DNA of 59,728 nt. Source: a virus (taxonomy: Duplodnaviria; Caudoviricetes). Positions 3,335 to 59,408 of this stretch are shown one piece after another. Numbering within the stretch: position 1 is the stretch's first letter; every line of letters begins with the position of its first letter. The notes under the pieces were generated by a model that worked only from the letters and a program-made list of their open reading frames with translations, had not been told where the DNA came from and ran no database searches. A program made the position numbers and the translations under genes. The stretch covers positions 1-59,728 of IMG/VR virus record IMGVR_UViG_3300046028_010391; one strand, written 5' to 3'.

Positions 3335-3343
3335 ATATTTATA
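3335..3343 (+). promoter_or_regulatory. Putative late promoter ATATTTATA
   Basis: Motif recurs just upstream of structural genes. Confidence 0.7.
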
Positions 3344-3353
3344 AATAAAAAGT

Positions 3354-5913: not shown

Positions 5914-5936
5914 CAGTTTTATCAATATAAGTTTTA

Positions 5937-5945
5937 ATATTTATA
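5937..5945 (+). promoter_or_regulatory. Putative late promoter ATATTTATA
   Basis: Recurrent motif, 17 nt upstream of the repeat-protein ATG. Confidence 0.7.
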
Positions 5946-5962
5946 AGAAACGTTTTTAAGGC

Positions 5963-10861: not shown

Positions 10862-10863
10862 AC

Positions 10864-10896
10864 TTGGATATTTAAAATATTTTTTATATATTTATT
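10864..10896 (+). promoter_or_regulatory. Composite promoter: TTGG-N19-TATATT overlapping ATATTTATT
   Basis: Both recurrent motifs lie upstream of the coiled-coil/glycosyltransferase genes. Confidence 0.6.
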
Positions 10897-36078: not shown

Positions 36079-37407
36079 ATGTTTAAAAATTTAAAAGACA
36101 GATTATTTCCAGCATTAATAGCACTCTCCGCCCTGTCAGTGTCTGCTTCGGCCGCTTTCTATTCGGTTAGCGGCCTTAGCAAACTCTTTGCTGGGGCTAG
36201 TTTAGAGGTTATTATAATGGCTTCATCTCTTGAGGTTGCTAAATTAGTTATAGCTTCTTTACTTTATCAATATTGGGGTAAAATTAATAAAACCTTAAAA
36301 GTTTATCTTACAGTAGCATGTGCTGTGTTAATTTTAATTACTTCAATGGGTATTTATGGTTTCTTATCGTCCGCGTATCAAGAAACCGCTAATAAAGATA
36401 ATTTAGTAACCCAACAAGTTGAAGCATTAGAAACTAAAAAGAAATTATACGAGGGTACTCGAGATAATATTCTTAAAGAAAAGCAATCATTAGCTGAGTT
36501 AAAAGGTACATTATCTAAAGGTTCAACTACTCAATATACAGATAAAAATGGTAATTTAGTAGTTAGATCAAATAACGCTACTGTAAAACAAATTGAATCA
36601 GCTAATAAATCAGATGATGCTTTAACAAATAAACTAGATGTAGCTAATGATTCTATATTTAGTTTAGAAACCCAAATTCTAGAAGTTAGAACTAAAGGTG
36701 AAACCACTAGTGAATTAGGTCCACTTAAATACCTTTCAGAACTAACTGGGGTTGAAATGAACCGAATTATTAACTGGCTACTTTTAGTAATTATCTTTGT
36801 ATTTGATCCTTTAGCTATTGCTTTAGTAATTGCTGCTAACTTTGCTTTTGCTCAACTACGTCCTAAAAAAGAATATCCACTAGAGGAACAAGTAGAGGAT
36901 ATGAGAAAAGTAGTTGACGCTTATGATACTTTACAAGACGAAATAGAAGATAATGAAGGGACTGATATCTATACTGAAGATGAATTAAAAGATTGGGATT
37001 CAACTTTAATGGATGGTTTAGAAGATCTAACATGGGATGAATACGGTAACCCAACACCTAACATTTATGATGAAGATCCTAATTCACCTGTAAATCTAGA
37101 TTTAGATGGTGATGGAATTGTTGAAGAAGAAGAAATACAACAAGTATTTGATCAAGCCGACACTAATGATGATGGAGTAATAGATGAACAAGAAGCCAAA
37201 GCAGCTAATTTAGATTTAGAAACAGCCCACAAATTAAATGACGTTACCAAAGCACTAGAAGAACTAGAAAAACTAAACAGAGAAAACAACTATGACTTCC
37301 AGTGGAAAAAAGATAAAATGTCTGAAGAATTAAATAATATTAAAAAATTCTTACTACAACAGTTTAAAGATAAGAATAAAGACGAGGATACAATAACCTA
37401 CTTTTAA
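36079..37407 (+). CDS. Membrane protein with coiled coil and C-terminal EF-hand pair
   Basis: Three N-terminal hydrophobic helices, coiled coil, further TM helix (IIFVFDPLAIAL), acidic tail with DLDGDGIVEEEE and DTNDDGVIDEQE. Confidence 0.75.
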   Translation: MFKNLKDRLFPALIALSALSVSASAAFYSVSGLSKLFAGASLEVIIMASSLEVAKLVIASLLYQYWGKINKTLKVYLTVACAVLILITSMGIYGFLSSAYQETANKDNLVTQQVEALETKKKLYEGTRDNILKEKQSLAELKGTLSKGSTTQYTDKNGNLVVRSNNATVKQIESANKSDDALTNKLDVANDSIFSLETQILEVRTKGETTSELGPLKYLSELTGVEMNRIINWLLLVIIFVFDPLAIALVIAANFAFAQLRPKKEYPLEEQVEDMRKVVDAYDTLQDEIEDNEGTDIYTEDELKDWDSTLMDGLEDLTWDEYGNPTPNIYDEDPNSPVNLDLDGDGIVEEEEIQQVFDQADTNDDGVIDEQEAKAANLDLETAHKLNDVTKALEELEKLNRENNYDFQWKKDKMSEELNNIKKFLLQQFKDKNKDEDTITYF

Positions 37408-38255: not shown

Positions 38256-38462
38256 ATGACACACGAAGAATTCGAAAACCAACAACTCGACAAAATCAAT
38301 CACATCATCGATATCAATAATGCTATTGGTGAAGTATGGGCTTATCATCCCGAAAATCCAAATCGAATTGATCCTGTTCAATATCATGCTATTTTAGTTG
38401 CGAAGCTGGAACAAATGGAACAGGAATTGAAGGAGTTTGAAGCACAATATGGCACAGTATAG
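38256..38462 (+). CDS. Hypothetical protein
   Basis: GTTATG start. WAYHPENP motif. Confidence 0.7.
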   Translation: MTHEEFENQQLDKINHIIDINNAIGEVWAYHPENPNRIDPVQYHAILVAKLEQMEQELKEFEAQYGTV

Positions 38463-39045
38463 TTTTCTTAAAGGAACTAGTATTAAACACAGTCGAGAGG
38501 TTGTTATGAAGCATATTAATAAGCTTCAACCTCTCAACTATAACAAATTTATGTGGTGGCGTACACATACTGATAAAGTTGTACCTCTTGGTAAACGTGC
38601 ACCACTTAAAGATCGTATTTTGAATGGTGATTTTAATCCATCATCATATTTCTGGCAAGCACAATTATCTTTGTATACTGCTTTAGACAAAATTAATCTG
38701 GAAACCGATGACCATCAGAAACAAGTTGAAATGTTACAACTTGATATGGCTCGTCATAAACGATTGATGGAGGATTTTGAAAAAGAAGAACCTGCACGTT
38801 TAGAAGCTTTGTATGATGCCTTTACAGTTGCATTTAAGGTTACTCGTGAAGAATTAGAAGAAAAATTTCTTAATTGGCCGGGTGATATTTTGAGTTTTTA
38901 TAATCATGCTTGTGAATTTATGCACACTACCCCAGCTGAAAATAGAAAAAACATGAGAGGTCGTCCTAAAAAAGTACAACCTGTACAAGTTCAAAATAAA
39001 CTAAAACGTGGGAGAGGACGTCCTCGTAAAAATGAAATGTTTTAA
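38449..39045 (+). CDS. Hypothetical protein with C-terminal AT-hook-like motifs
   Basis: RGRPKK and KRGRGRPRK near the C-terminus. Confidence 0.7.
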   Translation: MAQYSFLKGTSIKHSREVVMKHINKLQPLNYNKFMWWRTHTDKVVPLGKRAPLKDRILNGDFNPSSYFWQAQLSLYTALDKINLETDDHQKQVEMLQLDMARHKRLMEDFEKEEPARLEALYDAFTVAFKVTREELEEKFLNWPGDILSFYNHACEFMHTTPAENRKNMRGRPKKVQPVQVQNKLKRGRGRPRKNEMF

Positions 39046-39047
39046 AA

Positions 39048-39197
39048 ATGATAGAAATTATTAGACATAGTTTAGGATTTTGTGGTGAACATTGGCATCC
39101 AAATCTTTTTACAGTTTTAGCAGGTAGTCTTGGAATCCTACCAGGAATTAATTATATTTATTTCAAATATATTAAACGTTATGAAAAAAAGAATTAA
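39048..39197 (+). CDS. Small hypothetical protein (49 aa), possibly membrane-anchored
   Basis: Read by hand: MIEIIRHSLGFCGEHWHPNLFTVLAGSLGILPGINYIYFKYIKRYEKKN. Confidence 0.55.
   Translation: MIEIIRHSLGFCGEHWHPNLFTVLAGSLGILPGINYIYFKYIKRYEKKN
39130..39158 (+). promoter_or_regulatory. Promoter TTGG-N19-TATATT
   Basis: Exact spacing, upstream of the TGT-fold gene, within the small ORF. Confidence 0.55.
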
Positions 39198-39978
39198 GGT
39201 TTCACATGAAGTCCCCTTTAGTTTATTGGATTATAGTCGTGAATTTAATGATTATGACTATTGTTTACCCCACCTATTAGATCAAAATGAAGAATATTTG
39301 GCTTATTTTAAACAAGCCAAAGCAGATGGACGTTATATTATAATGGACAATTCACTTCATGAATTGGGTGAAGCTTATGATTCAAATCGTTTATGGCACT
39401 GGATAAACGAACTACAACCAAATGAATTTATTGTACCTGATGTTTGGGAAAATAAAACTCAAAGTGTTGTAAATGCTCGTCAGTGGATTAAATATGAGTA
39501 CCCTGAAAACACTACTCCAGTAGCAGTAGTTCAAGCACAAACACTTCATGAAGCATTTGAATGTACTCAAACATATAAAGATTTAGGTTATAAGAAAATG
39601 GCATATTCGTATGGTGCTTCTTACTATAATGATGTTTGTGTTCATCCTAATAAACATTTAGGTAAAGCACTTGGTCGTGTTTATGTAATTTCAACTTTGT
39701 ATAAACAAGGAGTTTTATCGCCTAATGATCGAGTACATCTATTAGGTTGTCAAGTACCTCAAGAATTTGGTTGGTATGAAGGTATTGAATGTATTGAATC
39801 AATTGATACTTCAAATCCAATTATGGCAGCACTAGATGGTAATGCTATTAATTTCTTTGGCCTAACAGAAAAACCAGAAGCAAATATGAATAATTTCCAA
39901 GAATTACCTTCAGAAGATATTGATTTGGATCTTATTGATAATAATGTTGAAATATTTCGTTTAATTAATAATCTATAA
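39181..39978 (+). CDS. tRNA-guanine-transglycosylase-fold protein (DpdA-like 7-deazaguanine insertase)
   Basis: IIMDNSLHE, IVPDV, PVAVVQ, RVHLLG, ESIDTSNP. Heads the que gene cluster. Confidence 0.7.
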   Translation: MKKRIKVSHEVPFSLLDYSREFNDYDYCLPHLLDQNEEYLAYFKQAKADGRYIIMDNSLHELGEAYDSNRLWHWINELQPNEFIVPDVWENKTQSVVNARQWIKYEYPENTTPVAVVQAQTLHEAFECTQTYKDLGYKKMAYSYGASYYNDVCVHPNKHLGKALGRVYVISTLYKQGVLSPNDRVHLLGCQVPQEFGWYEGIECIESIDTSNPIMAALDGNAINFFGLTEKPEANMNNFQELPSEDIDLDLIDNNVEIFRLINNL

Positions 39979-39981
39979 GTT

Positions 39982-40227
39982 ATGAACACACAAACCGAAT
40001 ATAAATCATTGTTTGATTATCTAGGGCATGCCGCTGGTAGTGATCTAGGAAAACAAGTAGCTGCCGCAGCATCAGCTGAAAAAGTAAGAATTGCTGTAAA
40101 ATATGTTCAAAATTCTAAATATAAAGGAGACATTTTAATGTATCCTATTGATTGGTTAGATTATTACTTTTCTAAAAAAGAAACAAAACAAGATGAATCA
40201 GATGAATCATATGAACTCCCCTTCTAA
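39982..40227 (+). CDS. Hypothetical protein
   Basis: GTTATG start. SLFDYLGHAAG motif, ends ELPF. Confidence 0.7.
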   Translation: MNTQTEYKSLFDYLGHAAGSDLGKQVAAAASAEKVRIAVKYVQNSKYKGDILMYPIDWLDYYFSKKETKQDESDESYELPF

Positions 40228-40360
40228 AACAACTCAAGAAATAAATCCTGTTTGGGAAGCAGAAATTAAAAAAGTTTTAGACGAACTTTGGAAAAATCGT
40301 TTTAATTTAAGTTTGAAAAACGTAGAACTTCTACGTAGATTATCTAATAAAAAATATTAA
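40211..40360 (+). CDS. Small hypothetical protein (49 aa)
   Basis: Read by hand: MNSPSKTTQEINPVWEAEIKKVLDELWKNRF... Fills the gap to queC. Confidence 0.5.
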   Translation: MNSPSKTTQEINPVWEAEIKKVLDELWKNRFNLSLKNVELLRRLSNKKY

Positions 40361-40361
40361 T

Positions 40362-41177
40362 ATGAATAAACAAGCAGTATTGTCACTAAGTGGAGGTATG
40401 GACAGCTCCACATTGTTGCTTCATCTACTCGCCAATGGCTATGAAGTGACAGCACTGTCTTTTGACTATGGTCAAAAACATAGAGTTGAACTTGAGCGTG
40501 CTCAAGATTTAGTAAACTATCTAAATTCTCAATGTACCGATAACAATTGTTATGGTGGATGTAAGATTAAATATCAAGTAATTAAACTTGATGGTTTGAG
40601 TCAACTACTTAATTCATCACTTGTAACAGGTGGAGATGAAGTACCTGAAGGTCACTATGCTGAAGAAAATATGAAGGCAACAGTTGTACCTAATCGTAAT
40701 AAAATCTTTAGTTCAATTATTCAAGCAGTAGCTTTAAGTATAGCAAACAAAACCAATTCAGAGGTTAAAATTGCTTTAGGAGTACATAGCGGAGATCATT
40801 CAATTTACCCAGATTGTACGGATGAATGGAGAAAATCAGATGAAATAGCATTTAAAACAGGAAATTGGGATTCACATCTAGTAAATTATTATGTTCCCTA
40901 TATGGAAGGAAATAAATTTACTATTCTACAAGATGGAGAAAAATGTTGTAAACAATTAAGTCTTGATTTTAACGAAATATATAAACGTACAAATACATCT
41001 TATAAACCATACCCTTCAGGAAACTCTGATTATATGTCTGCTTCAAGTGTTGAACGTGTAGAAGCATTTATTGCTTTAGGTCGTCCTGATCCTGTAACTT
41101 ATGAAGATGAAGATGGTATTGCTTCATGGGATAAAGTAGTTGCTCATGTATCTAAAGTACTAGCTAGCCATGAGTGA
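40362..41177 (+). CDS. queC: 7-cyano-7-deazaguanine synthase
   Basis: SLSGGMDS, FDYGQKH, VVPNRN, YPDC. Confidence 0.92.
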   Translation: MNKQAVLSLSGGMDSSTLLLHLLANGYEVTALSFDYGQKHRVELERAQDLVNYLNSQCTDNNCYGGCKIKYQVIKLDGLSQLLNSSLVTGGDEVPEGHYAEENMKATVVPNRNKIFSSIIQAVALSIANKTNSEVKIALGVHSGDHSIYPDCTDEWRKSDEIAFKTGNWDSHLVNYYVPYMEGNKFTILQDGEKCCKQLSLDFNEIYKRTNTSYKPYPSGNSDYMSASSVERVEAFIALGRPDPVTYEDEDGIASWDKVVAHVSKVLASHE

Positions 41178-41454
41178 TGGAATCACCGAAGCTCGTAGAG
41201 GTACTTACTTTAAAAACGATAAATACAATAAAAGTATAATTAATTGGGAATTACATCAGAAAATGAATAATAAAAAATCTAAAATAGATAAAGATTTTAA
41301 ACATATGCCTAACCAAAAATGGCACAAAATTATAAGTTTTATCAAATCAGGGGTTAGAATTGTAGGTTACGGACTTATCCCATTTAATTTGGTAGTTGCA
41401 ACAATTGTACTTATCTTTAGTGAAGTTATTGGCATTGTTGAAGAATTAGTATGA
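41170..41454 (+). CDS. Hypothetical protein with hydrophobic C-terminus
   Basis: Overlapping start/stop packing. Confidence 0.6.
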   Translation: MSDGITEARRGTYFKNDKYNKSIINWELHQKMNNKKSKIDKDFKHMPNQKWHKIISFIKSGVRIVGYGLIPFNLVVATIVLIFSEVIGIVEELV

Positions 41455-41657
41455 CACGTAGACCCTATAGAAAGTCGGTTCCATTCCAAGAAATGTATGT
41501 TATTATAAACCAAAATGGAGAAGTATTTACAGGATTAAAAAAAGGTTACCCTGAGTATTCTTGGGATTGGTCACAAGCAAAACCACTATTTATAGAGAAC
41601 ACAAAATACCTGTTAAGAGAAACAGGGACAGAATTAATCAAAGAATCAGAATTATGA
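41451..41657 (+). CDS. Hypothetical protein
   Basis: ATGA overlaps on both sides. Confidence 0.6.
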   Translation: MTRRPYRKSVPFQEMYVIINQNGEVFTGLKKGYPEYSWDWSQAKPLFIENTKYLLRETGTELIKESEL

Positions 41658-41899
41658 AACAAGTATATTACTTTTCGGCTAGTTGGTGTCAACCGTGCCA
41701 AACACTTGGCCCTATCATGGAACAAGTATCTCAACAAGTTCATGTTGAAAAAATTAACGTAGATTATGAAGCCGACCTTATCACAAAATATGGTGTTAGA
41801 AATATTCCCACTGTAATACTCGTGGAAAATGGTCAAGAAGTTCGTAGATTTACTGGAGCAAGAAATTTTAACGACGTAATGAATTTTATCAATGGGTAG
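41654..41899 (+). CDS. Thioredoxin
   Basis: FSASWCQPC, YGVRNIPT. Start at ATG 41654. Confidence 0.9.
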   Translation: MKQVYYFSASWCQPCQTLGPIMEQVSQQVHVEKINVDYEADLITKYGVRNIPTVILVENGQEVRRFTGARNFNDVMNFING

Positions 41900-42356
41900 T
41901 TTTAGATCAACAAAAGTATTTGACGGTTACTCAACTGTATTTCGTCAATGGAGAGCCGATGGAACTCATTGTCAGTTTCTCCATGGTTATGGAGTATCAT
42001 TTAAAGTATGGTTTGAAGGTGAACTTGATGAACGTAATTGGGTTTGGGATTTTGGAGGTATGAAACGTGCTAAAGGTACTATTGATGGAATGAATCCTAA
42101 AGCATGGATGGATTATATGTTTGACCATACTACAATTGTTGCTGAAGATGATCCATATTTAGAAAAATTTAAAGAAATGTGGAAAGATGGTATTATTCAA
42201 CTTCGTATCATTCCAGCAGTAGGAGCAGAACAATTTTCAAACTACCTTTGGGTGAAACTAAATAACTTTATTCAAGAAGAAACTGATGGACGTGTAAGAG
42301 TAGTTCAAGTTGAATTTAGAGAACATGAAAAAAATACAGCATTTTATAAAGGATAA
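41892..42356 (+). CDS. queD: 6-carboxy-5,6,7,8-tetrahydropterin synthase
   Basis: HCQFLHGY, DFG, FDHT, E-x-x-KN. Next to queE. Confidence 0.88.
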   Translation: MGSFRSTKVFDGYSTVFRQWRADGTHCQFLHGYGVSFKVWFEGELDERNWVWDFGGMKRAKGTIDGMNPKAWMDYMFDHTTIVAEDDPYLEKFKEMWKDGIIQLRIIPAVGAEQFSNYLWVKLNNFIQEETDGRVRVVQVEFREHEKNTAFYKG

Positions 42357-42358
42357 TT

Positions 42359-43141
42359 ATGGCACTAGGTAGAATCGAAGATTATAGTAAAAAGCTCCCA
42401 ATCGTTGAGCTTTATACCTGCGTACAATCAGAAGGTAGTAGAGCAGGTCGTCCAACAGTAGCAATTAGAACTACAGGTTGTACTCACCGTTGTTATTTTG
42501 GTGAAGGTGGATGGTGTGACTCTTGGTACACGAGTATCCACCCAGAAAAAGGTAAATTTAACTTCCAGGATATTGTAAACATTTACGATGCACACCCTGA
42601 AATTACAGAAATGATGCTTACAGGTGGTTCACCCACAATGCATCCTGCTTTAGTAAATGAATTAACTCACTTTGCTAATGAAAGAGGAATTATTATTACT
42701 ATTGAAACTGAAGGATCTCATTTCTTAGAAACTGACCATCCTATTGGTCTTATTAGTTTTAGTCCTAAATTTAAAAATTCAGTCCCTGTATTAGGAGTAC
42801 TTACACCTCAAGGTTCAGTTACAGATCAAAAGATGATTGACAAACATAATAGCTTACGTTTAAATAAAGATGCTATTAAAAAATCTATGGAATATCATTC
42901 TGATTACCATATGAAAGTTGTAGTCAACCCAATTGAAGATCCTGAAACATGGAATGAAATTAAATCATTCTTGGATGAATTAGAAGTACCTAAGAATAAA
43001 ATTTGGATTATGCCTCCTGGAGATAACCGCCAAGAATTGATTCGAGTTTATCCTATGGTAATTGACTGGTGTACTAAAAATTATTATAATTTCACTGGTC
43101 GTGAACACATCATTGCCTTTGATACTAAGCGCGAAGTTTAA
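42359..43141 (+). CDS. queE: 7-carboxy-7-deazaguanine synthase (radical SAM)
   Basis: VQSEGSRAG, RTTGCTHRC...WCDS, LTGGSP, IETEG, SPK. Confidence 0.9.
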   Translation: MALGRIEDYSKKLPIVELYTCVQSEGSRAGRPTVAIRTTGCTHRCYFGEGGWCDSWYTSIHPEKGKFNFQDIVNIYDAHPEITEMMLTGGSPTMHPALVNELTHFANERGIIITIETEGSHFLETDHPIGLISFSPKFKNSVPVLGVLTPQGSVTDQKMIDKHNSLRLNKDAIKKSMEYHSDYHMKVVVNPIEDPETWNEIKSFLDELEVPKNKIWIMPPGDNRQELIRVYPMVIDWCTKNYYNFTGREHIIAFDTKREV

Positions 43142-43149
43142 TATTTATT
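43141..43149 (+). promoter_or_regulatory. Putative late promoter variant ATATTTATT
   Basis: Directly upstream of the nuclease ATG. Confidence 0.45.
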
Positions 43150-43154
43150 CTCAT

Positions 43155-43748
43155 ATGAGAAAAAGTATTTTATTATTTATTTCGTTACTATTATCAGTAA
43201 CGTCTTTTGCACAAGTTCTTAGAGATAGTATTCATTGGAATACTCCTTATTATACAATCATCTATTCTGAGGTATTAGAACAACCTAAAGCTATTTGGTA
43301 CACGGTTGCTTGTCCTGATGGAACAGCATCACGAGCAGGAATGGATTTTTACACAGAACCTGGTATTAAAACATCAGACAATGCTGATTATGTAAATAAT
43401 GAATGGGATAAAGGTCATATGGCACCTGCAGCGTCTTTAAATTGTAATAAAAATATGCTATGGGAAACCTTTAATTACATGAATTCAGCATTGCAACAAC
43501 AATCTTTAAACAGAGGTGTTTGGAAAAAGCTTGAAATACAAGAGCGTATTTGGGCCCAAACATCTCATGTTGAAGTTTATATTAGAGTTGAATTTGATAA
43601 AGTACCTAAAAGAGTTCCTACAAACGCTGCTATTCCAAAAGGATTTTATAAAGAACTTAAAATAGGAAATACAAAACGCTGTTACTATTTTCCAAATGTA
43701 GCTCCTACTACAAATGAATTAGAAAAATTTAAATGTAATTGTAGATGA
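43155..43748 (+). CDS. Exported DNA/RNA non-specific (NucA/EndA-type) endonuclease
   Basis: Signal peptide MRKSILLFISLLLSVTSFA-Q. DKGHMAPAA, TFNYMN, LNRGVWKKLE, IPKGFYK. Confidence 0.85.
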   Translation: MRKSILLFISLLLSVTSFAQVLRDSIHWNTPYYTIIYSEVLEQPKAIWYTVACPDGTASRAGMDFYTEPGIKTSDNADYVNNEWDKGHMAPAASLNCNKNMLWETFNYMNSALQQQSLNRGVWKKLEIQERIWAQTSHVEVYIRVEFDKVPKRVPTNAAIPKGFYKELKIGNTKRCYYFPNVAPTTNELEKFKCNCR

Positions 43749-44026
43749 ATAAAAAATTATTGGTTGAAAACTTAGAAAATAAACAAAATGTAATTTTGTT
43801 TTTTAACTCATCACATTGTGGAGCTTGTCAAACAGCAAAACCCATTGTTGAAAAAATTGTAAAATCTAAAAAAGATTATTTATATTCTAATATTACAGAA
43901 GGATCATCAGATTCAGAACAATTAGAAAAATTTTGTGGTGTTGAGTTTTATCCAACACTAGTTATCATTGAAAATGGTAAAGTAAAAAGGTATGTTGGTT
44001 TAAAACAATTGAATGAAATAAAATGA
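43745..44026 (+). CDS. Thioredoxin-like protein
   Basis: HCGAC, VEFYPTL. Confidence 0.8.
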   Translation: MNKKLLVENLENKQNVILFFNSSHCGACQTAKPIVEKIVKSKKDYLYSNITEGSSDSEQLEKFCGVEFYPTLVIIENGKVKRYVGLKQLNEIK

Positions 44027-44529
44027 AACAAGTATTATTTACTGAATTAGAATTACAAAACAAAGTAGGCGAAATTGCCTACAACATTAAAAAACAAGAA
44101 CACGATTTTCCTCCCGTGTTTATATGCGTTTTAAACGGCGCATTTATGTTCTTTACGGATTTAGTGAAGCGGATGGATGAATGCGAAATAGACTTTATAC
44201 GCGCGAAATCATACGAGGGAATCACACAGAGCACAGTCAAAATTACTAAATCTATTGAAATTGATATTTCAAGAAAAGACGTTTATCTTGTAGATGATAT
44301 TTACGATACAGGAGAAACAATGAAAGAACTTACTAATCATCTTAAATTATACGATCCTCGATCAATCACTCCAGTTACTTTATTTAAACGTTGGAGCGCA
44401 AAACATCCTGATTTAATTTATGGATTTGAATTGTATGATGAGGCCTGGCTTGTAGGTTATGGTTTAGATAATGAAAAAGGTCTCCAACGAAATCTTAAAC
44501 ATATTCTTGGAATCCCAAGAGAAGATTAA
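44023..44529 (+). CDS. hpt: Hypoxanthine/guanine phosphoribosyltransferase-like protein
   Basis: VLNGAFMF, KSY, LVDDIYDTG PRPP loop, VGYGLD. Confidence 0.88.
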   Translation: MKQVLFTELELQNKVGEIAYNIKKQEHDFPPVFICVLNGAFMFFTDLVKRMDECEIDFIRAKSYEGITQSTVKITKSIEIDISRKDVYLVDDIYDTGETMKELTNHLKLYDPRSITPVTLFKRWSAKHPDLIYGFELYDEAWLVGYGLDNEKGLQRNLKHILGIPRED

Positions 44530-44535
44530 TATATT
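44507..44535 (+). promoter_or_regulatory. Promoter TTGG-N19-TATATT
   Basis: Exact spacing, upstream of folE. Confidence 0.65.
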
Positions 44536-44551
44536 ATATAAAAATTAAGTT

Positions 44552-45256
44552 ATGGAAAATATCGAAAATAAGCGTCGTAAAAAACACGAAAACATTGAGT
44601 GTGTTCCTGTTGGATATGCTAATGGTGTTGCACCTGGTTTCCCATTTACCGATAGGGAAAAAGACAAAATGATTGAAGAAGCAGCCGAAGCGTTTGGTCA
44701 GTTTCTTGATGCCTTAAAATGTGATTGGAGAAACGACCCTAATTCAATGGAAACACCTCGTCGTGTAGCTAAAGCATATGTGAATGATTTGTGGAAAGGT
44801 CGTTACAACAACTTTACAGAAATTACTTCATTCCCTTCAGATGGTTATGATGGGATTATCATTGAACGTAACATTCAGCTTACTTCAATGTGCTCACATC
44901 ACCACCAAACAATTCGTGGTGTAGTACATATTGGTTATGTAGCTGGAAATGAAGGTCAAGTAATTGGTTTGTCTAAACTAAACCGAATTGTAGAACATTT
45001 TGGTCGTCGAGGTGCTATCCAAGAACAACTCACTTCAGCTATTCACCAAGCAGTAGATAAAGTATGTGAAGCAAATCGTGGTGTAATTGTAACTGTAGTA
45101 GCAACTCACAACTGTGTATCTTGCCGAGGTATTAATCACCAAGGTGCAGCAATGGTAACTACTAAAGCATCAGGTGTGTTTATGGAAAACGACAATCAAG
45201 CACGTAAAGAATTCTTTGATTCATTGAAAATTAATAACGGTCATATTTCAATTTAA
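44552..45256 (+). CDS. folE: GTP cyclohydrolase I
   Basis: ETPRRVAK, SMCSHH, GLSKLNR, IQEQLT, HNCVSCRG. Confidence 0.95.
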   Translation: MENIENKRRKKHENIECVPVGYANGVAPGFPFTDREKDKMIEEAAEAFGQFLDALKCDWRNDPNSMETPRRVAKAYVNDLWKGRYNNFTEITSFPSDGYDGIIIERNIQLTSMCSHHHQTIRGVVHIGYVAGNEGQVIGLSKLNRIVEHFGRRGAIQEQLTSAIHQAVDKVCEANRGVIVTVVATHNCVSCRGINHQGAAMVTTKASGVFMENDNQARKEFFDSLKINNGHISI

Positions 45257-45261
45257 TAGTT

Positions 45262-45747
45262 ATGAGTGATAAACAAAATTACGTACCCTTTGTAAGCGAG
45301 GTTGAAGAGTTCAACAGCTTAATGAATAAACCCAACAACTATGAACCATCCATACCACACAATCGAGCTGAATGGGAGTTTGTATATAACTTCGTTCTCG
45401 AAGAACTTGAAGAATATAAACAAGCTTGCGAACGTGGAGACATCGTTGAAGTTTTGGACGCATTGTGCGACATTACTTATGTATCCCTTGGGAACGGTGC
45501 TATGCTTCATGGTCTTAAGGATAAAGTTTGGCCGGCTTATATGGAAGTGCAGGCGTCAAATTTATCAAAAGCTTGTTCTACACAAGAAGAGGCAGAAGAA
45601 ACTGTTAAAATTCGCTCCAACGAACAAGGTGAACTTTGTCATTGGGAGCAGGTTGGTGACAAGTATGTTGTATATCGTACTAGAGACCGTAAAGTCATAA
45701 AGTCGATTAATTACTTTAAACCAAATCTTAAGCAGTTTTTTGAATAA
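45262..45747 (+). CDS. MazG-like / PRA-PH family NTP pyrophosphohydrolase
   Basis: EELEEY...EVLDALCDITYV...EVQASNLSK. Confidence 0.8.
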   Translation: MSDKQNYVPFVSEVEEFNSLMNKPNNYEPSIPHNRAEWEFVYNFVLEELEEYKQACERGDIVEVLDALCDITYVSLGNGAMLHGLKDKVWPAYMEVQASNLSKACSTQEEAEETVKIRSNEQGELCHWEQVGDKYVVYRTRDRKVIKSINYFKPNLKQFFE

Positions 45748-48350
45748 TGTACCAATCCATCTACTACGATAGAGAGGAATACCAGTACTATTTAAGAGAT
45801 GACAAAAGGGGTTGGAAGGTATTTAATTACCAACCAACCCACTATGTTGCTGATCCTGACGGTGAACTAGAAACTCTTGATGGCACTAGAGTATCGCCCA
45901 TCAAAAAGATTGATTGGAAAGATCCTAAATATTATGAAAAGGATGTAGATAAAAATACTAGAGTATTAGTAGATTTTTATTACGAATCAGATGATACTCC
46001 AACTCATCATAATTTAGTTTATCTTGATATCGAGTGTGAAATTGCTGGAGCACTTACCCCCGAAAACATTAAGGATCCTAAAGGTAAAATTACATCTGTA
46101 GCTTTATATGATAACAATAGTAAAAAATATTACTGTTTGTTATTAGATGAAAAGAAATCATTTAAAGATGTAATCGAAGAAAATAAAGAAGTTATCCCAT
46201 ATGCTTCTGAAAAAGACTTACTTAACGGATTTCTTGATCTATGGATTAAATTAGATCCTACTATCATTTCAGGATGGAATAGTGAATTCTTTGATATTCC
46301 TTATTTATACTATCGTATTTCTAAAGTATTAAGTGAAGATTTAGCCCAATACTTATCTCCTATTCGTAAAGTTAAACCTACAGTAATGTTTGATGCTGGG
46401 GCAATGACTGAATTTGTAGTTGTAGGTGGTATTAATCACTTGGATTACATGAACTTGTTTAAAAAGTTTATTACTAAACAAGAGCCAAGTTATGCGTTAG
46501 GTAATATTGGAGAGAAGTATGTTAAATTAGGTAAAATTGACTATAAAGGATCACTTGACAGACTATTCCAGGAAGATATAGAAAAATTTATTGAATATAA
46601 CCTTCGAGACGTTGAAATTATTGTTGAGCTAGAAAAATCACTTAAGTTTATTGATTTAACAGTTACAATTTCTCATTTATGTCATACAACTTACGAGTCA
46701 ATTTATTATTCAACAGTATTGAATGATGGAGCTATTTTAACTTATCTAAAACGTAAAGGAATTGTATCTCCTAATAAACCTACTACATATAATCCTGCAC
46801 TTAAAGAAATTAAGGAAGAATATGCTGGAGGTTATTTAAAAGATCCGGTACCTGGTCTGTATGAATGGGTTATTGACCTCGATTTTACTTCGTTATATCC
46901 ATCAATTATTCGCTCTCTCAATATGGGTATTGAAACATTAGTAGGACGCGTTGTAAACCGCGATAAATTCGATAATCAATGGTCTTTGCGCGAGTTAAAG
47001 GCAATGGATCCTAATAAAGTAATCGAAATTGAAAAAGTAAAACGAGATAGATCATTAGTTCGTTCTGAAGTTAAAGTAAAAGATATTATAGAATTAATAG
47101 AAGAAAGTAATCTAATAATCTCAGCACCTGGAGTAATATTCCGTAAGGATAAATCAAGTGTTGTATGTGAAATTTTATCTGACTGGTTTGCTAAACGTCA
47201 AGAATATAAGGCGTTAATGAAAAAAGCATATAAAGTTGATAAAGACCCGGTTATGGGAGAGTTTTATAATAAACGTCAACACGCGTATAAAATTAAATTA
47301 AACGACGTTTATGGTGTATTTGCTATTAATGGTTGGAGATACACTGATGGACATAAATTTATTAGTAAAGCTATTACACTTACTGGTCAAAGATTAACTC
47401 AAGAGTCTATTAAATTTGTTAATAAATGGATGAATGAACAACTAAATACCAAAGATGTTGATTATATTGTCACTTCAGACACAGACTCATTGTTTATTCA
47501 AGTAAAAGATCTAATTTTATCTCGTAACCCAGAATTAAAAGATGCTGATCAAGATACTATTGTAAAAGCTGTACTTGAAGTTGCTACTGAGGTACAAAAG
47601 TTAGCAAACGATAATCTACATATTTTAGTTCAAGACTTATTTAATGTTAAGTACCCTGACGAACCACATTATTTTGAATTAAAACAAGAGGTTGTACTTG
47701 ATAGAGGTTACTTTGCTGGTAAGCGTAGATATGCTCAACATATTGTAAATAAAGAAGGTGTACCTGTAGATGAATTAGATATGAAGGGTTTGGATTTGAT
47801 GAAATCGAATTTCCCTCCACTATTTAGAAAGTTTGGTGAACATATTTTAAATGAAATTATGTTTGGTACTTCTAAAGCTAGTATTGATAAGCAAGTCCTT
47901 GAATTTAGAGAATCACTTAGAACAGTTGGTTGGGAACAAATTATGAAACCTACTGGATTAAAGAAAATGAGTGAATATATCGCTTCAGGCCCTACAGCAG
48001 GTGAAATATTTTCTAAATTAGGTTTAAAATGTCCTATTAATACTAAAGCAGCTATCTACTATAATGACCTACTTCGTTTTAAAGGATTAGATAAAAAATA
48101 CCCAACATTTCAAATAGGAGATAAAATGTACATTGGATACCTAAAGGAAAATCCGTATCGTATCGATGTGATTGGTTTTAATGGATATAATGATCCTCCA
48201 GAAATTATGGAATTTATCGAAAAATATATCGATAGAGATGGATTATTTGACTCTGTTATGAAAAACAAATTAGAAGGCATATACCAAGACCTTAAATGGG
48301 GTATGCCAGTATTTAATAAAAAAATAAATAAATTCTTTATATTCGAATAA
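45747..48350 (+). CDS. Family-B DNA polymerase (gp43-like)
   Basis: Exo motifs LDIE, GWNSEFFDIPY, YNLRD. Pol motifs DFTSLYPS, KIKLNDVYG, DTDS, KRRY. Confidence 0.95.
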   Translation: MYQSIYYDREEYQYYLRDDKRGWKVFNYQPTHYVADPDGELETLDGTRVSPIKKIDWKDPKYYEKDVDKNTRVLVDFYYESDDTPTHHNLVYLDIECEIAGALTPENIKDPKGKITSVALYDNNSKKYYCLLLDEKKSFKDVIEENKEVIPYASEKDLLNGFLDLWIKLDPTIISGWNSEFFDIPYLYYRISKVLSEDLAQYLSPIRKVKPTVMFDAGAMTEFVVVGGINHLDYMNLFKKFITKQEPSYALGNIGEKYVKLGKIDYKGSLDRLFQEDIEKFIEYNLRDVEIIVELEKSLKFIDLTVTISHLCHTTYESIYYSTVLNDGAILTYLKRKGIVSPNKPTTYNPALKEIKEEYAGGYLKDPVPGLYEWVIDLDFTSLYPSIIRSLNMGIETLVGRVVNRDKFDNQWSLRELKAMDPNKVIEIEKVKRDRSLVRSEVKVKDIIELIEESNLIISAPGVIFRKDKSSVVCEILSDWFAKRQEYKALMKKAYKVDKDPVMGEFYNKRQHAYKIKLNDVYGVFAINGWRYTDGHKFISKAITLTGQRLTQESIKFVNKWMNEQLNTKDVDYIVTSDTDSLFIQVKDLILSRNPELKDADQDTIVKAVLEVATEVQKLANDNLHILVQDLFNVKYPDEPHYFELKQEVVLDRGYFAGKRRYAQHIVNKEGVPVDELDMKGLDLMKSNFPPLFRKFGEHILNEIMFGTSKASIDKQVLEFRESLRTVGWEQIMKPTGLKKMSEYIASGPTAGEIFSKLGLKCPINTKAAIYYNDLLRFKGLDKKYPTFQIGDKMYIGYLKENPYRIDVIGFNGYNDPPEIMEFIEKYIDRDGLFDSVMKNKLEGIYQDLKWGMPVFNKKINKFFIFE

Positions 48351-53623: not shown

Positions 53624-54032
53624 TTGGCTTGATCAGATAACATACCATAAAAAATCTTGGGAAGATTTTACCGAAGATCAACAAGAATCGTTTAATTCTT
53701 ACATGGTTCACCGGTTTTTGAGTATGTATGAGGGATATATTGATATCACAAATGTTGTGCAAAAATTTCCTCTTACTGAAAAAAAACTAATATATAATAC
53801 CTACCGTTCCATGATCCCAAAGAAAAAAATGTTTCTGAAGTACATCAAATCCTCCAAGAAAAAAACACCACAAACTGTGTTAGAACACGTTGCAAATTAT
53901 TTTACTATCTCCCTTGGAGAAGCCGAAGAATATACTTATATTCTCCGAAAAGAAGGTGTTCATGCAATTTTGTTTGAACAAGGAGTACAAGAAAAAGAAA
54001 TAAATAAGTTATTAAAAGATTTAGTTTTATGA
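53610..54032 (+). CDS. Clamp loader small subunit (gp62-like)
   Basis: IFDWLDQI...FNSYMVHRFLSM...FLKYIK. Near the gp44-like gene. Confidence 0.7.
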   Translation: MKIFDWLDQITYHKKSWEDFTEDQQESFNSYMVHRFLSMYEGYIDITNVVQKFPLTEKKLIYNTYRSMIPKKKMFLKYIKSSKKKTPQTVLEHVANYFTISLGEAEEYTYILRKEGVHAILFEQGVQEKEINKLLKDLVL

Positions 54033-54406
54033 TCACAGAAAATACAGGTTACGATTATACTGGAACTCAAAAAGCAATTACGGATTTTGAAAAAACATAT
54101 CCTACACTTGCTGAGGCATTTAAAGAAACACAAAAAGAACAATACGAACTTTTTGCTCAAAAAATGATGGATTATGGTTTGAGTAATATTGCTCTTGGTT
54201 CACCACTTGAAGATGCTGAAGATATTAATCTATCGTTGACTGGTATTTGGTTGCGTTGTAATGACAAAATAAACCGCTTAAAAAACATGTTAAAGCGTAA
54301 AGGTCGTAATTACGTTCAAGACGAACCAATGATCGATAGTTTTATTGACATTTCTAACTACGGCATTATCGCTCAGTTAGTAATGAAGGGTAAATGGAAA
54401 AAATAA
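54029..54406 (+). CDS. DUF1599 / nucleotide-modification-associated domain 1-like protein
   Basis: KMMDYG, RCNDKINRL, DSFIDISNYGII. Confidence 0.75.
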   Translation: MITENTGYDYTGTQKAITDFEKTYPTLAEAFKETQKEQYELFAQKMMDYGLSNIALGSPLEDAEDINLSLTGIWLRCNDKINRLKNMLKRKGRNYVQDEPMIDSFIDISNYGIIAQLVMKGKWKK

Positions 54407-56205: not shown

Positions 56206-57642
56206 ATGAATAATAGTTTTGAACACTTGCCAAAAGAGCAAAGGAAAAAGATCTTACTTATTTGTGACGATATCCGAGTTCATTCGGGGATTGCAACAGT
56301 AGGTAGAGAAATTGTAATTCACACCTCCCATCATTTCAATTGGGTAAACATTGGTGGAGCAGTAAAACACCCAGAAGAAGGTAAACGTTTAGATCTTTCA
56401 GAATCTACAAACGTAAATGCAGGTATTGATGATTCTTCAGTAATTATGTATCCAGTTACAGGATACGGTACTCCAGAATTAGTTCGTCACTTAATTAAAG
56501 CTGAACAACCTGATGCTATTATGTTGATTACTGATCCTCGTTACTTTACATGGTTGTTTGCTATTGAAAATGAAATCCGTAAACACATTCCTATTGCTTA
56601 CTTAAACATTTGGGATGACTATCCAGCACCTCACTACAATAAAGCATTTTATGAGGCATGTGATTTGTTGATGGGTATTTCAAAACAAACAGTAAACATC
56701 AATAAACTTGTATTACGAGATAAAGCGGAAAGTAGAATTTTACGTTATGTTCCTCACGGTTTGAATAATGATATTTTTAAACCTTTGAGTAAAGAAGATG
56801 AACAATTAAAAGAATTTAAAAAGAAATTATTCCAAGGTAAAGAATATGATTTTGTTTTGTTCTTTAACTCTAGAAATATTCGCCGCAAACAAATTCCAGA
56901 TGCGATGTTAGCTTATAGATACTTTATTGATAAATTGTCTATTGAACAAGCTAAAAAATGTGCATTTGTACTTCATACCGAATTAGTAAGTGAACACGGT
57001 ACAGATCTCCCAGCAGTTCAAGAATTGATTTTAAATGGAGAACAATACAATGTAATTTATACTGGAGATCGTTTTGATGCTAATGGAATGAATTTATTGT
57101 ATAACAGCTGTGATGCTCAGATTTTGTTAACATCAAATGAAGGTTGGGGATTAAGTTTAACGGAAGCTATGTTATGTGGTTTACCTATTATTGCTAACGT
57201 AACAGGTGGTATGCAAGATCAAATGCGTTTTGAATTTGAAGATGGTACTTGGATTGATTTTGATGCAGATTTCCCTTCAAATCATAACGGAACCTATAAA
57301 AAACACGGTAAATGGGCTTTCCCAGTATATCCAACAAATCGTTCATTAGTTGGTTCACCACCAACACCTTATATTTGGGATGATAGATGCACCTCAGAAG
57401 ATGCAGCTGAACAAATTATGGCTGTTTATAATTTAGGTAAAGAAGGTCGTGAAGAAGTAGGTTTAGCTGGCCGTGAATGGGCTATTGGTGATGAAGCTGG
57501 ATTTACAGCAAAACACCAAGCATCAAGAGTTATTGAAGCATTTAATACACTATTTGAAACTTGGAAACCGAGAGAAAAATATGAATTAATTAATGTTAAT
57601 CAAGTAGAAGATAGAATTGTAAACCATAAATTGTTATATTAA
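56206..57642 (+). CDS. Glycosyltransferase family 4
   Basis: HSGIA, VPHG, RNIRRK, NEGWGLSLTEAMLCGLP. Confidence 0.88.
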   Translation: MNNSFEHLPKEQRKKILLICDDIRVHSGIATVGREIVIHTSHHFNWVNIGGAVKHPEEGKRLDLSESTNVNAGIDDSSVIMYPVTGYGTPELVRHLIKAEQPDAIMLITDPRYFTWLFAIENEIRKHIPIAYLNIWDDYPAPHYNKAFYEACDLLMGISKQTVNINKLVLRDKAESRILRYVPHGLNNDIFKPLSKEDEQLKEFKKKLFQGKEYDFVLFFNSRNIRRKQIPDAMLAYRYFIDKLSIEQAKKCAFVLHTELVSEHGTDLPAVQELILNGEQYNVIYTGDRFDANGMNLLYNSCDAQILLTSNEGWGLSLTEAMLCGLPIIANVTGGMQDQMRFEFEDGTWIDFDADFPSNHNGTYKKHGKWAFPVYPTNRSLVGSPPTPYIWDDRCTSEDAAEQIMAVYNLGKEGREEVGLAGREWAIGDEAGFTAKHQASRVIEAFNTLFETWKPREKYELINVNQVEDRIVNHKLLY

Positions 57643-59397: not shown

Positions 59398-59408
59398 AAA
59401 TAAAATTT

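Follow-up and report, generated by a model that had tools for sequence, protein, structure and literature searches.

The window analysed here is a stretch of 59,728 nucleotides from the virus record IMGVR_UViG_3300046028_010391 (Duplodnaviria; Caudoviricetes), assembled as one contig with an estimated completeness of 37 %. Positions 39181-48350 harbour a gene cluster entirely on the + strand, in which families were assigned by Pfam, PHROGs and NCBIfam profile searches. These searches confirmed the co-oriented set that an earlier note on this DNA had listed: a TGT-fold gene, queC, queD, queE, folE, an Hpt-like phosphoribosyltransferase (PRTase) gene, a MazG-like gene and a PolB gene. The TGT-fold gene (39181..39978), assigned by tblastn and fold, is preceded on the same strand by a gene for an AT-hook protein (38449..39045; C-terminal GRPKK and RGRGRPRK motifs, weak Pfam AT_hook match) and followed by a small conserved ORF (39982..40227) that has tblastn homologues in 51 of 81 loci (80 DpdA3 loci plus immuto) and no family match. 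Next come genes for a 7-cyano-7-deazaguanine synthase-like QueC (40362..41177; Pfam QueC 3.9e-37; phrog_1550; TIGR00364 6e-36, below the curated cut-off), a 6-carboxytetrahydropterin synthase-like QueD (41892..42356; Pfam PTPS 3.1e-13; phrog_2389 1.4e-38) and a radical SAM, CDG synthase-like QueE (42359..43141; phrog_2076 1.2e-47; TIGR03365 6e-14). The Hpt-like 6-oxopurine PRTase gene (44023..44529; Pfam Pribosyltran 1.8e-21; TIGR01203 3.9e-35) ends 23 nt upstream of folE, whose product, GTP cyclohydrolase I, starts the pathway (44552..45256; Pfam GTP_cyclohydroI 2.5e-43; NF006824 3.6e-43). The cluster closes with an all-alpha NTP pyrophosphatase of MazG-like type whose C-terminal extension is conserved (45262..45747; Pfam PRA-PH 2.2e-9, above cut-off; phrog_671 1.7e-25) and a T4-like family B DNA polymerase (45747..48350; phrog_262 2e-161; Pfam DNA_pol_B plus exonuclease domain). 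The stop codon of the former shares one base with the start codon of the latter (gaaTAATGtac), an overlap also seen earlier.

Several genes interleaved with the cluster had been missing from the earlier list, namely two thioredoxins, a nuclease and several small ORFs. Thioredoxin 1 (41561..41899; Pfam Thioredoxin 2.1e-17) was found in most related loci. The non-specific DNA/RNA endonuclease (43062..43748; Pfam Endonuclease_NS 4.5e-22) is a variable passenger present in a minority of them, and is followed by thioredoxin 2 (43745..44026; Pfam Thioredoxin 2.9e-10). RNR subunits and the two thioredoxins are encoded beside or inside the cluster.

The window had been described as lacking queF and gat-queC, and this description holds. 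A six-frame search of the window for queF gave one weak match (E 0.005), located inside folE, a T-fold relative, and the queC product consists of the QueC domain without an amidotransferase domain. With an estimated 37 % of the genome on the contig, a gene missing from the window may still exist in the phage. Five near-complete relatives did not contain a real queF either; four gave no match and one a weak match coinciding with folE. Since queF is absent, preQ1 derivatives are not expected, and the inserted base would be at the preQ0/ADG/CDG level rather than fdPreQ1.

Sequence and model together identify the TGT-fold protein as a predicted DpdA3-type guanine transglycosylase, a minimal TGT barrel that keeps the conserved Asp residues. 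The gene matched immuto DpdA (2e-44), CP220 gp056 (6e-29) and phiST CGPG_00065 (6e-6) in tblastn; its ORF can be extended to a TTG at 39130, and homologues start at the ATG at 39181. The AF2 model has a mean pLDDT of 97.5. Top Foldseek matches were all TGT, ArcTGT or DpdA (including DpdA 7ui4), and VIA-align gave Z scores of 17-18 with 230-236 of 265 residues aligned. The homologues share D56, D87, R166 and H186 without exception, and D209 almost without exception. Cys and His are absent from the final 50 residues; the Zn subdomain is missing, and TGT and DpdA exceed the protein in length by 100-150 residues. The enzyme appears to be universal in these phages: in all five records without dpdA3 within 8 kb of the MazG-like gene it was found elsewhere. 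Gene sets of this type for replacing guanine with a 7-deazaguanine have already been described. In the DpdA3 phages CP220, phiST and immuto 100 % of dG is reported to be replaced (Hutinet et al. 2023, PMC10516641). By analogy, high-level replacement of G is likely in the present phage as well, because its TGT-fold protein is of the DpdA3 type. Full replacement by a base exchanger that acts after replication is, however, unproven.

In the route proposed in the earlier note, the PRTase and/or the TGT-fold protein make a deazaguanine nucleotide, the pyrophosphatase depletes dGTP and PolB incorporates the analogue. Spelled out for the PRTase, the enzyme would join PRPP to preQ0, CDG or ADG, the phage RNR would reduce the product, which would then be phosphorylated, the MazG-like enzyme would remove dGTP, a selective PolB would incorporate the analogue and DpdA3 would have a secondary role, for instance patching residual G. 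Chemical precedent exists: TubE is described as a purine PRTase specific for CDG, using PRPP and CDG (PMC6112128), and a PF00156 enzyme is reported in toyocamycin clusters (preprint 10.64898/2026.04.15.718813). The RNR and thioredoxin genes also suit this route, as does the presence of a PRTase in 53 of the 64 de-duplicated loci on which the PRTase, folE and MazG neighbourhood counts are based. In 45 of these 53, however, the gene sits at most 150 nt before or after folE, and not with the last steps of the pathway. Among 28 loci that cover queE-folE, 12 carry an Hpt-like and 9 a Gpt-like enzyme, while 7 carry neither; 122 ORFs from these seven loci were scanned with Pfam, and none matched PF00156. 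Nor was a PRTase found elsewhere in any of five whole records without one in the cluster, including records of 166 kb with terminal repeats (100 % complete) and 155 kb (95 % complete), or in the fully modified CP220. The PRTase is thus an accessory of the cluster, linked to folE.

The class of the enzyme points in the same direction. It looks like an ordinary 6-oxopurine PRTase; its best match in the PDB is an HGXPRT (2.4e-25), and the alignment includes the PRPP and Ser-Tyr loops as well as the Lys and the aromatic stacking residue. The PRTases of phiST and immuto are Gpt-like and have only the PRPP loop in common with the Hpt-like type, which indicates that two families, both in 6-oxopurine classes, were recruited into the same slot. 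Furthermore, the 'GTP cyclohydrolases' (~300 aa) of Vibrio phage VpKK5 (Queuovirinae) and Pseudomonas phage Baskent_P4_1 have a Gpt-like domain at the N-terminus, its PRPP loop intact; the gene order of Baskent_P4_1 is that described for iggy. Queuovirinae phage iggy is reported to contain dPreQ0 at GA sites only, amounting to 16.5 % of G (PMC10484667). Such partial modification of a GA motif must take place after replication, as a motif cannot arise from the nucleotide pool; the argument for the FolE-fused PRTase rests on iggy, of the same subfamily, with VpKK5 and Baskent_P4_1 known by their genes. Together with the universal DpdA3 and an interchangeable polymerase (see below), these data make a PRTase entry into the nucleotide pool very improbable, even though, judged by sequence, the TubE precedent leaves 7-deazaguanine as a possible substrate. 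Salvage of guanine towards GTP for FolE fits the PRTase best, so that the simpler alternative of the same note, an Hpt that recycles guanine, appears the better reading. The PRTase and FolE steps would not be consecutive, since conversion of GMP to GTP takes two kinases.

The MazG-like gene is far more constant, being found in 63 of the 64 loci, usually directly after folE (at most 700 nt downstream in 50 of 64). Its product shares at least 79 % identity with the best 120 database matches, while for DpdA3 most of the 80 retained loci show 54-66 % and only 8 reach 75-94 %; the MazG-like protein is conserved far more strongly than DpdA3 and its other neighbours. E47, E48, E51, D66, D70, C105, C126 and H127 are invariant. 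The model has a pLDDT of 72, and its structural neighbours MazG, HisE and DR2231 are not significant. It is quite possible, if somewhat short of an even chance, that this enzyme is simply the dUTPase or a house-cleaning pyrophosphatase of the phage, with no special link to guanine. Indeed, a trimeric dUTPase (PF00692) was found in none of the five near-complete relatives, nor in the rest of the genome of the closest one, and DR2231, a weak neighbour in sequence and structure (E 0.6-2, not significant), is MazG-like and was crystallised together with dUMP and dUMPNPP. More remote homologues, 38 % and 30 % identical, come from phages in which no deazaguanine genes lie close by, showing that the family is not specific to the pathway. 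The dUTPase reading is at odds with the fixed position after folE, which in phiST is taken by a sequence-unrelated MazG-like gene, and with the exceptional conservation, and it leaves the invariant Cys/Cys/His C-terminal extension unexplained. The adjacent polymerase is not inherited together with the pathway and its family is interchangeable: immuto combines an annotated family A polymerase, with no PolB match in the locus examined, with a 76 % identical MazG, which shows that PolB is not specific to the pathway. Of the G-replacement scheme in the earlier note, the gene set, the probable high substitution (given the DpdA3 type) and the tie between NTP pyrophosphatase and cluster are supported; the PRTase entry and the selective PolB are not.

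The constancy of the MazG-like gene also bears on the level at which DpdA3 works. Following T4-like logic, the MazG-like enzyme could convert dGTP to dGMP, DpdA3 would replace the guanine of the free deoxynucleotide by the 7-deazaguanine base, phosphorylation by a kinase and NDK would yield the triphosphate for the polymerase, and the PRTase would recycle the released guanine. In each of the three cultured lineages with full replacement an NTP/phosphohydrolase gene does accompany DpdA3, inside the cluster or next to it, and the family differs every time: MazG-type in immuto, the unrelated MazG-like type in phiST and an HD-domain protein adjoining DpdA3 in CP220. The gene orders HD/P-loop, DpdA3, Tmk-like in CP220 and MazG, DpdA3, DpdN (PF00551 formyltransferase family), Tmk-like in immuto agree with such a scheme, as do DpdA3-DpdN fusions and the small, Zn-less DpdA3 itself. 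To our knowledge all complete base replacements of known route are pre-replicative, which counts in its favour; we know of no characterised TGT-superfamily enzyme that acts on anything other than a polynucleotide, which counts against it. Attempts to modify DNA with DpdA3 in E. coli are reported to have failed, and ADG nucleoside to occur in infected cells (PMC10516641), both in keeping with this scheme. However, the five near-complete relatives contain no real thymidylate kinase, the closest having only two generic P-loop ORFs (AAA_28 and Zeta_toxin-like) far from the cluster, and the distant MazG relatives lie outside deazaguanine loci. In addition, AT-hook homologues, present in 60 of 80 DpdA3 loci, are the commonest upstream neighbours of dpdA3 (22 abut or overlap it and another 8 are no more than 200 nt away), hinting at action on DNA; no P-loop was found in the AT-hook protein of the window. 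Exchange at the nucleotide level is considered unlikely.

The preferred reading, which we consider probable, is that an uncultured T4-like myovirus, a relative of Flavobacterium phage immuto, carries a DpdA3-type 7-deazaguanine module with a guanine-salvage PRTase. Starting from GTP, FolE, QueD, QueE and QueC would produce a 7-deazaguanine base at the level given above, which DpdA3 would insert in exchange for guanine; in line with the published proposal we infer that it does so on DNA, as we infer the inserted base and what the PRTase and MazG-like enzyme act on. Most or all dG would be replaced, protecting against restriction; the gene identities, fold and co-occurrence come from the present analysis and the 100 % replacement in relatives from the literature. 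As a helper, the PRTase may convert free guanine, released by the exchange and/or from degraded host nucleic acid, to GMP, from which host kinases would make the GTP that the adjacent FolE uses. The MazG-like enzyme would be a constant companion acting on some nucleotide and PolB an ordinary phage replicase. Some observations speak against this reading. The hydrolase in all three cultured lineages also fits dGTP depletion, which would be counter-productive if dG must be polymerised first, and the thymidylate-kinase-like gene beside or near dpdA3 in CP220 and immuto hints at nucleotide-level chemistry; the reported failure of DpdA3 in E. coli counts here too.

Z-genome (2-aminoadenine) phages, with PurZ, MazZ, DatZ and DpoZ, likewise encode base synthesis and an NTP pyrophosphatase beside the polymerase, and in the present cluster the MazG-type enzyme is constant. 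Here, however, a predicted base-exchange enzyme, DpdA3, is universal, the polymerase is not co-inherited, and none of the encoded enzymes is known to make the modified base on a nucleotide. The tubercidin and toyocamycin clusters (TubE/ToyH), compared by their descriptions, also encode a PF00156 enzyme with FolE/QueD/QueE(/QueC) homologues, but are described without a transglycosylase and with GMP reductase, decarboxylase or adenylosuccinate enzymes and a phosphatase, none of which was seen here (10.64898/2026.04.15.718813). Queuovirinae-type preQ0/DpdA clusters (iggy, CAjan; VpKK5; Baskent_P4_1) share FolE/QueD/QueE/QueC, a TGT-family transglycosylase adjoining the polymerase and a 6-oxopurine PRTase module on FolE. 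They differ in the DpdA subfamily, in the fusion of PRTase and FolE, in the lack of a MazG-like gene between queE and polymerase in two loci examined and, for iggy and CAjan, in the partial, motif-specific modification reported (PMC10484667). Campylobacter phage CP220 (Firehammervirus, dADG) and Cellulophaga phage phiST (dDG), both with complete dG replacement according to PMC10516641, have DpdA3 homologues of 33 % and 23 % identity and the FolE/QueD/QueE core. CP220 has no PRTase and its DpdA3 is flanked by the HD/P-loop protein and Tmk-like gene; phiST has DpdL and lacks QueC, and its PRTase lies ~17 kb from dpdA3. Unlike in immuto, genes for QueF, DpdN and a Tmk-like protein were not seen in the window, whose PRTase and polymerase are of other families. 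The two are alike in DpdA3 (35 % identical), QueD, QueE and FolE (60-73 %) and the MazG-type pyrophosphatase (76.5 %), in a 6-oxopurine PRTase beside folE and in GroES/GroEL downstream of the polymerase.

All the genes that the earlier note had assembled into a 7-deazaguanine cluster were recovered, co-oriented on the + strand. The TGT-fold gene, here named dpdA3 (39181-39978; identified by tblastn to DpdA3 phages and by fold), is followed by queC (40362-41177), queD (41892-42356), queE (42359-43141), a gene for an Hpt-like 6-oxopurine phosphoribosyltransferase (PRTase; 44023-44529; family HMMs and PDB matches), folE (44552-45256), a gene for a MazG-like NTP pyrophosphatase of the PRA-PH family (45262-45747; Pfam PRA-PH) and the gene for the family B polymerase PolB (45747-48350; family HMMs). 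Interspersed among these are genes for two thioredoxins and an Endonuclease_NS nuclease, together with small ORFs. As had been noted, the PolB gene begins within the MazG stop codon, with one base in common (TAATG); the same overlap occurs in the closest relatives L002 and L007, with variable spacing elsewhere. FolE, QueD, QueE and QueC were each detected by Pfam, PHROGs and NCBIfam, so that co-encoded synthesis of a 7-deazaguanine base is present. Their NCBIfam scores fall below the equivalog cut-offs, which marks them as divergent phage versions. The absence of queF and gat-queC from the window was also confirmed: the single weak queF match falls inside folE, and the window QueC has no amidotransferase domain. 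Nor was a real queF found in five near-complete relatives of the window's clade.

The window is a fragment (IMG/VR estimate of 37% completeness) of a low-GC phage, with a G+C of ~30-36% over its 59.7 kb outside a collagen-repeat gene. Its T4-like genes encode tail sheath, baseplate, gp32-like and UvsX/RecA-like proteins, a DnaB-like helicase, class I ribonucleotide reductase (RNR) subunits, PolB, clamp loader and GroES/GroEL. The collagen-repeat gene (5963-10861; G+C 46-48% vs ~33%) encodes a 1,632-aa protein consisting mostly of collagen triple-helix repeats (Pfam 1e-161), probably a fibre protein. Several glycosyltransferases and a DegT-type aminotransferase are encoded at 11221-15330 and 56206-59726; in the closest relative (L182, G006; 2698-10867) such genes run into a dTDP-sugar/epimerase/methyltransferase cassette. 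Judged by gene families, they constitute a sugar pathway, the target of which would be the virion or DNA. A 125-aa ORF (54029-54406) matching DUF1599, 'nucleotide modification associated domain 1' (7.9e-6), adjoins a family 2 glycosyltransferase and a PD-(D/E)XK nuclease. A 442-aa ORF (36079-37407) between the RNR large subunit and the cluster gave weak EF-hand matches only. Homologues of this ORF were found by tblastn in 57 of 81 loci, and its likeness to the cut immuto_85 gene reaches 69% identity over 101 residues.

By tblastn, with matches covering 70-93% of the query, the window TGT-fold protein is 35% identical to the protein annotated as 'DNA guanine transglycosylase' in Flavobacterium phage immuto (2e-44), 33% identical to the hypothetical protein gp056 of Campylobacter phage CP220, which relatives of that phage share (6e-29), and 23% identical to the hypothetical protein CGPG_00065 of Cellulophaga phage phiST (6e-6). 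Pfam and NCBIfam gave no match for it. The DpdA3 subfamily was founded on the proteins of CP220, phiST and immuto (Hutinet et al. 2023, PMC10516641), and the sequence comparison places the window protein in the same subfamily. The family comprises 1,503 representative clusters at E <= 0.001. An alignment of the window protein with 111 of the best 150 of these matches, truncated and fused ones excluded, yielded an AlphaFold2 model with a mean pLDDT of 97.5. All top Foldseek matches of this model are TGT, archaeosine TGT or the bacterial DNA preQ0 insertase DpdA (7ui4), with a probability of 1.00, and VIA-align superposed 230-236 of the 265 residues on TGT-type structures (Z 17.6-17.8, rmsd about 3.1-3.2). 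The model thus predicts the (beta/alpha)8 TGT fold. D56, D87, R166 and H186 are invariant in the alignment and D209 is near-invariant; the conserved aspartates sit in the motifs LDNS, PDV and DTSNP, the last of which holds D209. By comparison with known TGT motifs, these aspartates are candidates for the nucleophile and the general acid/base. In a profile search the HLLG...D-T-S-x-P stretch aligned with DpdA 7ui4 (E 0.016).

The window protein (265 aa) is 100-150 residues shorter than its TGT and DpdA structural matches. We take the canonical zinc site of TGT enzymes to be the C-terminal Cys/His cluster; the last 50 residues of the window DpdA3 contain neither Cys nor His, so that this site cannot exist in it. 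Net charge was considered as a sign against DNA binding and discarded: the family median pI is 5.5 (n = 112), and the DpdA of Vibrio phage VpKK5 is acidic too (pI 5.1), which makes the charge of DpdA3 uninformative. Among 12 longer DpdA3 matches scanned for fusions, two carry a GIY-YIG/NUMOD homing endonuclease, two a DpdN formyltransferase and eight nothing. In relatives, dpdA3 and polB have such GIY-YIG/NUMOD modules either as fusions or as insertions next to them (the database relatives P0004 and P0035; locus L045, 16220-16942), and in L045 PolB appears split.

The neighbours of dpdA3 give hints in two directions. Upstream, 38449-39045 encodes a protein of ~200 aa with two C-terminal AT-hooks, of unassigned family and without a P-loop, for which the ESM Atlas returned only an unnamed viral cluster at 0.75. 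Homologues are present in 60 of 80 DpdA3 loci; 22 of them adjoin or overlap dpdA3, and another 8 are no more than 200 nt away from it. In locus L079 the two genes are separate, with one in-frame stop between them. Such a DNA-binding neighbour hints that DpdA3 acts on DNA, and the AT-hook protein might direct the Zn-less enzyme to its DNA target. The predicted complex of the two proteins scored 0.29 against a mark of 0.32 and counts neither way. A thymidylate-kinase-like (Tmk-like) gene lies beside or near dpdA3 in CP220 and immuto; together with the DpdA3-DpdN fusions it hints at nucleotide-level chemistry. In five near-complete relatives of the window's clade no real thymidylate kinase was found; the search gave only weak P-loop matches (14-17.5 bits, below cut-off) in ~305-aa ORFs, which are probably clamp loader genes.

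The window PRTase matched 59 PDB sequences, the best being an HGXPRT (2.4e-25). Its PRPP loop (DDIYDTG), Ser-Tyr loop, Lys and stacking aromatic align with those of solved HG(X)PRTs; we assume the usual roles for these residues, namely a catalytic Ser-Tyr loop, an O6-binding Lys and an aromatic stacking residue. The protein thus carries the sequence signature of a type I 6-oxopurine PRTase, while its TIGR01203 score of 121 bits, below the curated 150, falls short of what NCBI requires of an equivalog. The PRTases of the immuto type and of phiST are Gpt-like (NF006613, xanthine/guanine PRTase) and 30% identical to each other. Likeness between the Hpt-like and Gpt-like enzymes is limited to the PRPP loop, which indicates that two 6-oxopurine PRTase families were both recruited to the same place beside folE.

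Co-occurrence was followed in two sets of loci, one anchored on DpdA3 (relatives on 142 viral contigs; 80 loci kept, 54-94% identity) and one on MazG (144 viral contigs; 80 loci kept, 74-91% identity). Among the 28 DpdA3-anchored loci with both queE and folE, 12 have an Hpt-like PRTase, nine one of the immuto type and seven neither. No Pfam Pribosyltran match was found among 122 + strand ORFs of 300-1700 nt, drawn from the 175 non-nested ORFs of these seven loci. Nor was a PRTase found in the whole records of five of the PRTase-less loci, which include one of 166 kb with terminal repeats (100% complete) and one of 155 kb (95% complete). The enzyme is thus common, yet dispensable where DpdA3, the base-synthesis genes, MazG and PolB are kept. 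It is present in 37 of 39 MazG-anchored loci with at least 7 kb upstream. When both sets were merged, de-duplicated by folE sequence and restricted to loci with 1.5 kb on each side of folE (n = 64), 53 loci had a PRTase (35 Hpt-like, 18 Gpt-like), in 45 of the 53 no more than 150 nt upstream or downstream of folE.

The Gpt-like type was found in only 40 of 50,697 phage records, among them four of immuto and five of the phiST group. In 13 annotated records of 42-64 kb, belonging to phages of Vibrio, Sphingomonas, Stenotrophomonas and Pseudomonas, the match lies under a gene annotated as GTP cyclohydrolase; one further related Vibrio record is unannotated. Two of the 13 were examined, Vibrio phage VpKK5 of the Queuovirinae (L176:6998-7900) and Pseudomonas phage Baskent_P4_1 (L175:6971-7864). 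In both, the gene encodes a two-domain protein of ~300 aa, a Gpt-like PRTase joined to FolE, with the cyclohydrolase domain at residues ~117-296. The N-terminal ~116 residues, a domain missed by the Pfam Pribosyltran model in both fusions, are 27-28% identical to the immuto PRTase, have an intact PRPP loop and share with it the motif W-V-V-F-P-W-E. The gene order of both phages, queE-queC-queD-folE-(dpdA)-polymerase, is the one described for Queuovirinae in the iggy paper (PMC10484667). For iggy itself, modification was read as dPreQ0 on 16.5% of G, in a GA motif (PMC10484667). A sequence motif cannot come from the nucleotide pool, so that modification of the iggy type is post-replicative.

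The favoured reading of the window PRTase is that of a guanine-salvage helper, which would feed the guanine nucleotide pool behind FolE's GTP. The tie to folE, the GTP-consuming first step, the fusion to FolE in a lineage whose member iggy is modified after replication, the ordinary-looking active-site loops and the dispensability of the enzyme all fit it. The same four facts speak for the simpler alternative of the earlier note, in which Hpt recycles guanine, and make its proposed entry of a deazaguanine into the nucleotide pool through the PRTase less probable. The salvaged guanine would be set free by the base exchange itself and/or by the breakdown of host nucleic acid. A genome of ~160 kb at ~33% G+C contains, by arithmetic, about 50,000 G, each modified base requiring one GTP precursor, and a guanine-recycling loop, if true, would explain how so many modified bases per genome can be afforded. 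Tubercidin biosynthesis involves a purine PRTase, TubE, with PRPP and CDG as its substrates (PMC6112128), and by this analogy the sequence leaves room for a 7-deazaguanine substrate of the window enzyme. Companion tailoring enzymes of TubE/ToyH-type clusters were not seen in the window.

The MazG-like protein matches Pfam PRA-PH at 38 bits (cut-off 21.3). E47, E48, E51, D66 and D70 are invariant in its alignment and E63 near-invariant, presumably forming the metal-binding motif of all-alpha NTP pyrophosphatases; its sequence assigns it to that superfamily (MazG/HisE/dimeric dUTPase). It has a strongly conserved C-terminal extension (residues 95-161) with invariant C105, C126 and H127, which to our knowledge is not typical of MazG or HisE and may bind a metal or serve in substrate recognition. 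PDB sequence and profile searches yielded no significant match: DR2231 appeared at E 0.75 and 2, and a match to Noc (E 0.012) was rejected as spurious. The structural model reached a pLDDT of 72, and Foldseek found no match for it at E <= 0.001, its neighbours (MazG-related, HisE, DR2231) being not significant. The protein is 76.5% identical to that of immuto, compared with 35% for DpdA3, and has 6,852 database relatives, of which the best 120 are all at least 79% identical. FolE adjoins MazG in 63 of 67 loci with at least 1.5 kb upstream, and DpdA3 was located elsewhere in all five records in which it was absent within 8 kb of MazG. In the 64-locus census MazG is present in 63, lying at most 700 nt downstream of folE in 50.

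This usual position after folE would fit a role special to the deazaguanine pathway. In phiST a sequence-unrelated MazG-like gene occupies the same position, and in CP220 an HD/P-loop phosphohydrolase adjoins DpdA3. In contrast to the window, no MazG-like gene separates queE from the polymerase in the two Queuovirinae-type clusters examined, although an HD hydrolase is encoded ~5 kb upstream in Baskent_P4_1. The HMMs PF12643, PF08761 and PF01503 were also run on CP220, phiST, VpKK5 and Baskent_P4_1, but they missed the annotated MazG-like gene of phiST, the positive control, which renders their Queuovirinae-type negatives meaningless. An ordinary role, for instance as a dUTPase, would fit the lack of a trimeric dUTPase in all five near-complete relatives and in the rest of the closest relative's genome (105 ORFs scanned). 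It would also fit the occurrence of remoter MazG homologues (38% and 30%) in phages without deazaguanine genes nearby.

PolB follows MazG in 60 of 65 loci with at least 3 kb downstream. The polymerase of immuto, in contrast, is annotated as family A, and its 24.8 kb locus contains no PolB match. Six immuto-like viral loci (L146, L149, L151, L153, L160, L161) likewise have no PolB match; they keep MazG (75-77% identity) and carry QueF, DpdN and Tmk homologues. By these comparisons the deazaguanine pathway is not tied to PolB, and a PolB that selects the analogue, as the earlier note had supposed, is disfavoured. The proposed check on gene co-occurrence gave a divided result: MazG and folE are near-constant partners, whereas the PRTase is dispensable and PolB is not tied to the pathway.

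A pre-replicative replacement of G by another route is conceivable, and we consider it unlikely. DpdA3 would then be a deoxynucleotide transglycosylase supplied with dGMP by MazG, and no modifier of DNA. The pyrophosphatase would convert dGTP to dGMP, on which DpdA3 would exchange the guanine for a 7-deazaguanine; kinases would raise the product to the triphosphate and any polymerase could incorporate it, while the PRTase would return the expelled guanine to GTP for FolE. If true, this would be contrary to the published proposal, and no TGT-fold enzyme before DpdA3 would have had a free nucleotide as its substrate. In the literature searched there is no experimental proof of how DpdA3 phages reach 100%, and no discussion of the PRTase-folE tie, the near-invariant MazG or the AT-hook neighbour. 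A full-text search found no paper that deals, for the deazaguanines of phages, with a PRTase or with a route ahead of replication, and neither the DpdA3 paper (PMC10516641) nor the iggy paper (PMC10484667) contains the term 'phosphoribosyl'. A test of DpdA3 in E. coli was attempted by Hutinet et al. and failed (PMC10516641). The regularities of PRTase-folE, MazG and AT-hook gene jointly reduce the choice between pre- and post-replicative modification to three enzyme assays. The phage group concerned is abundant, uncultured and aquatic, with the 142 viral contigs and 6,852 MazG-like relatives as its measure.

Among known systems, Z-genome phages have a dedicated polymerase co-inherited with the base-synthesis genes, a trait from which the present cluster differs. 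The cluster is a further example of the DpdA3 kind already described. No viruses other than DpdA3 phages are known to replace every guanine with a 7-deazaguanine, the fully modified cultured ones being CP220 with dADG, phiST with dDG and immuto with fdPreQ1 (PMC10516641). By analogy with them, high-level replacement of G with a base at the preQ0/ADG/CDG level is likely in the phage of the window, whereas the pool route through the PRTase and a selective PolB is disfavoured.
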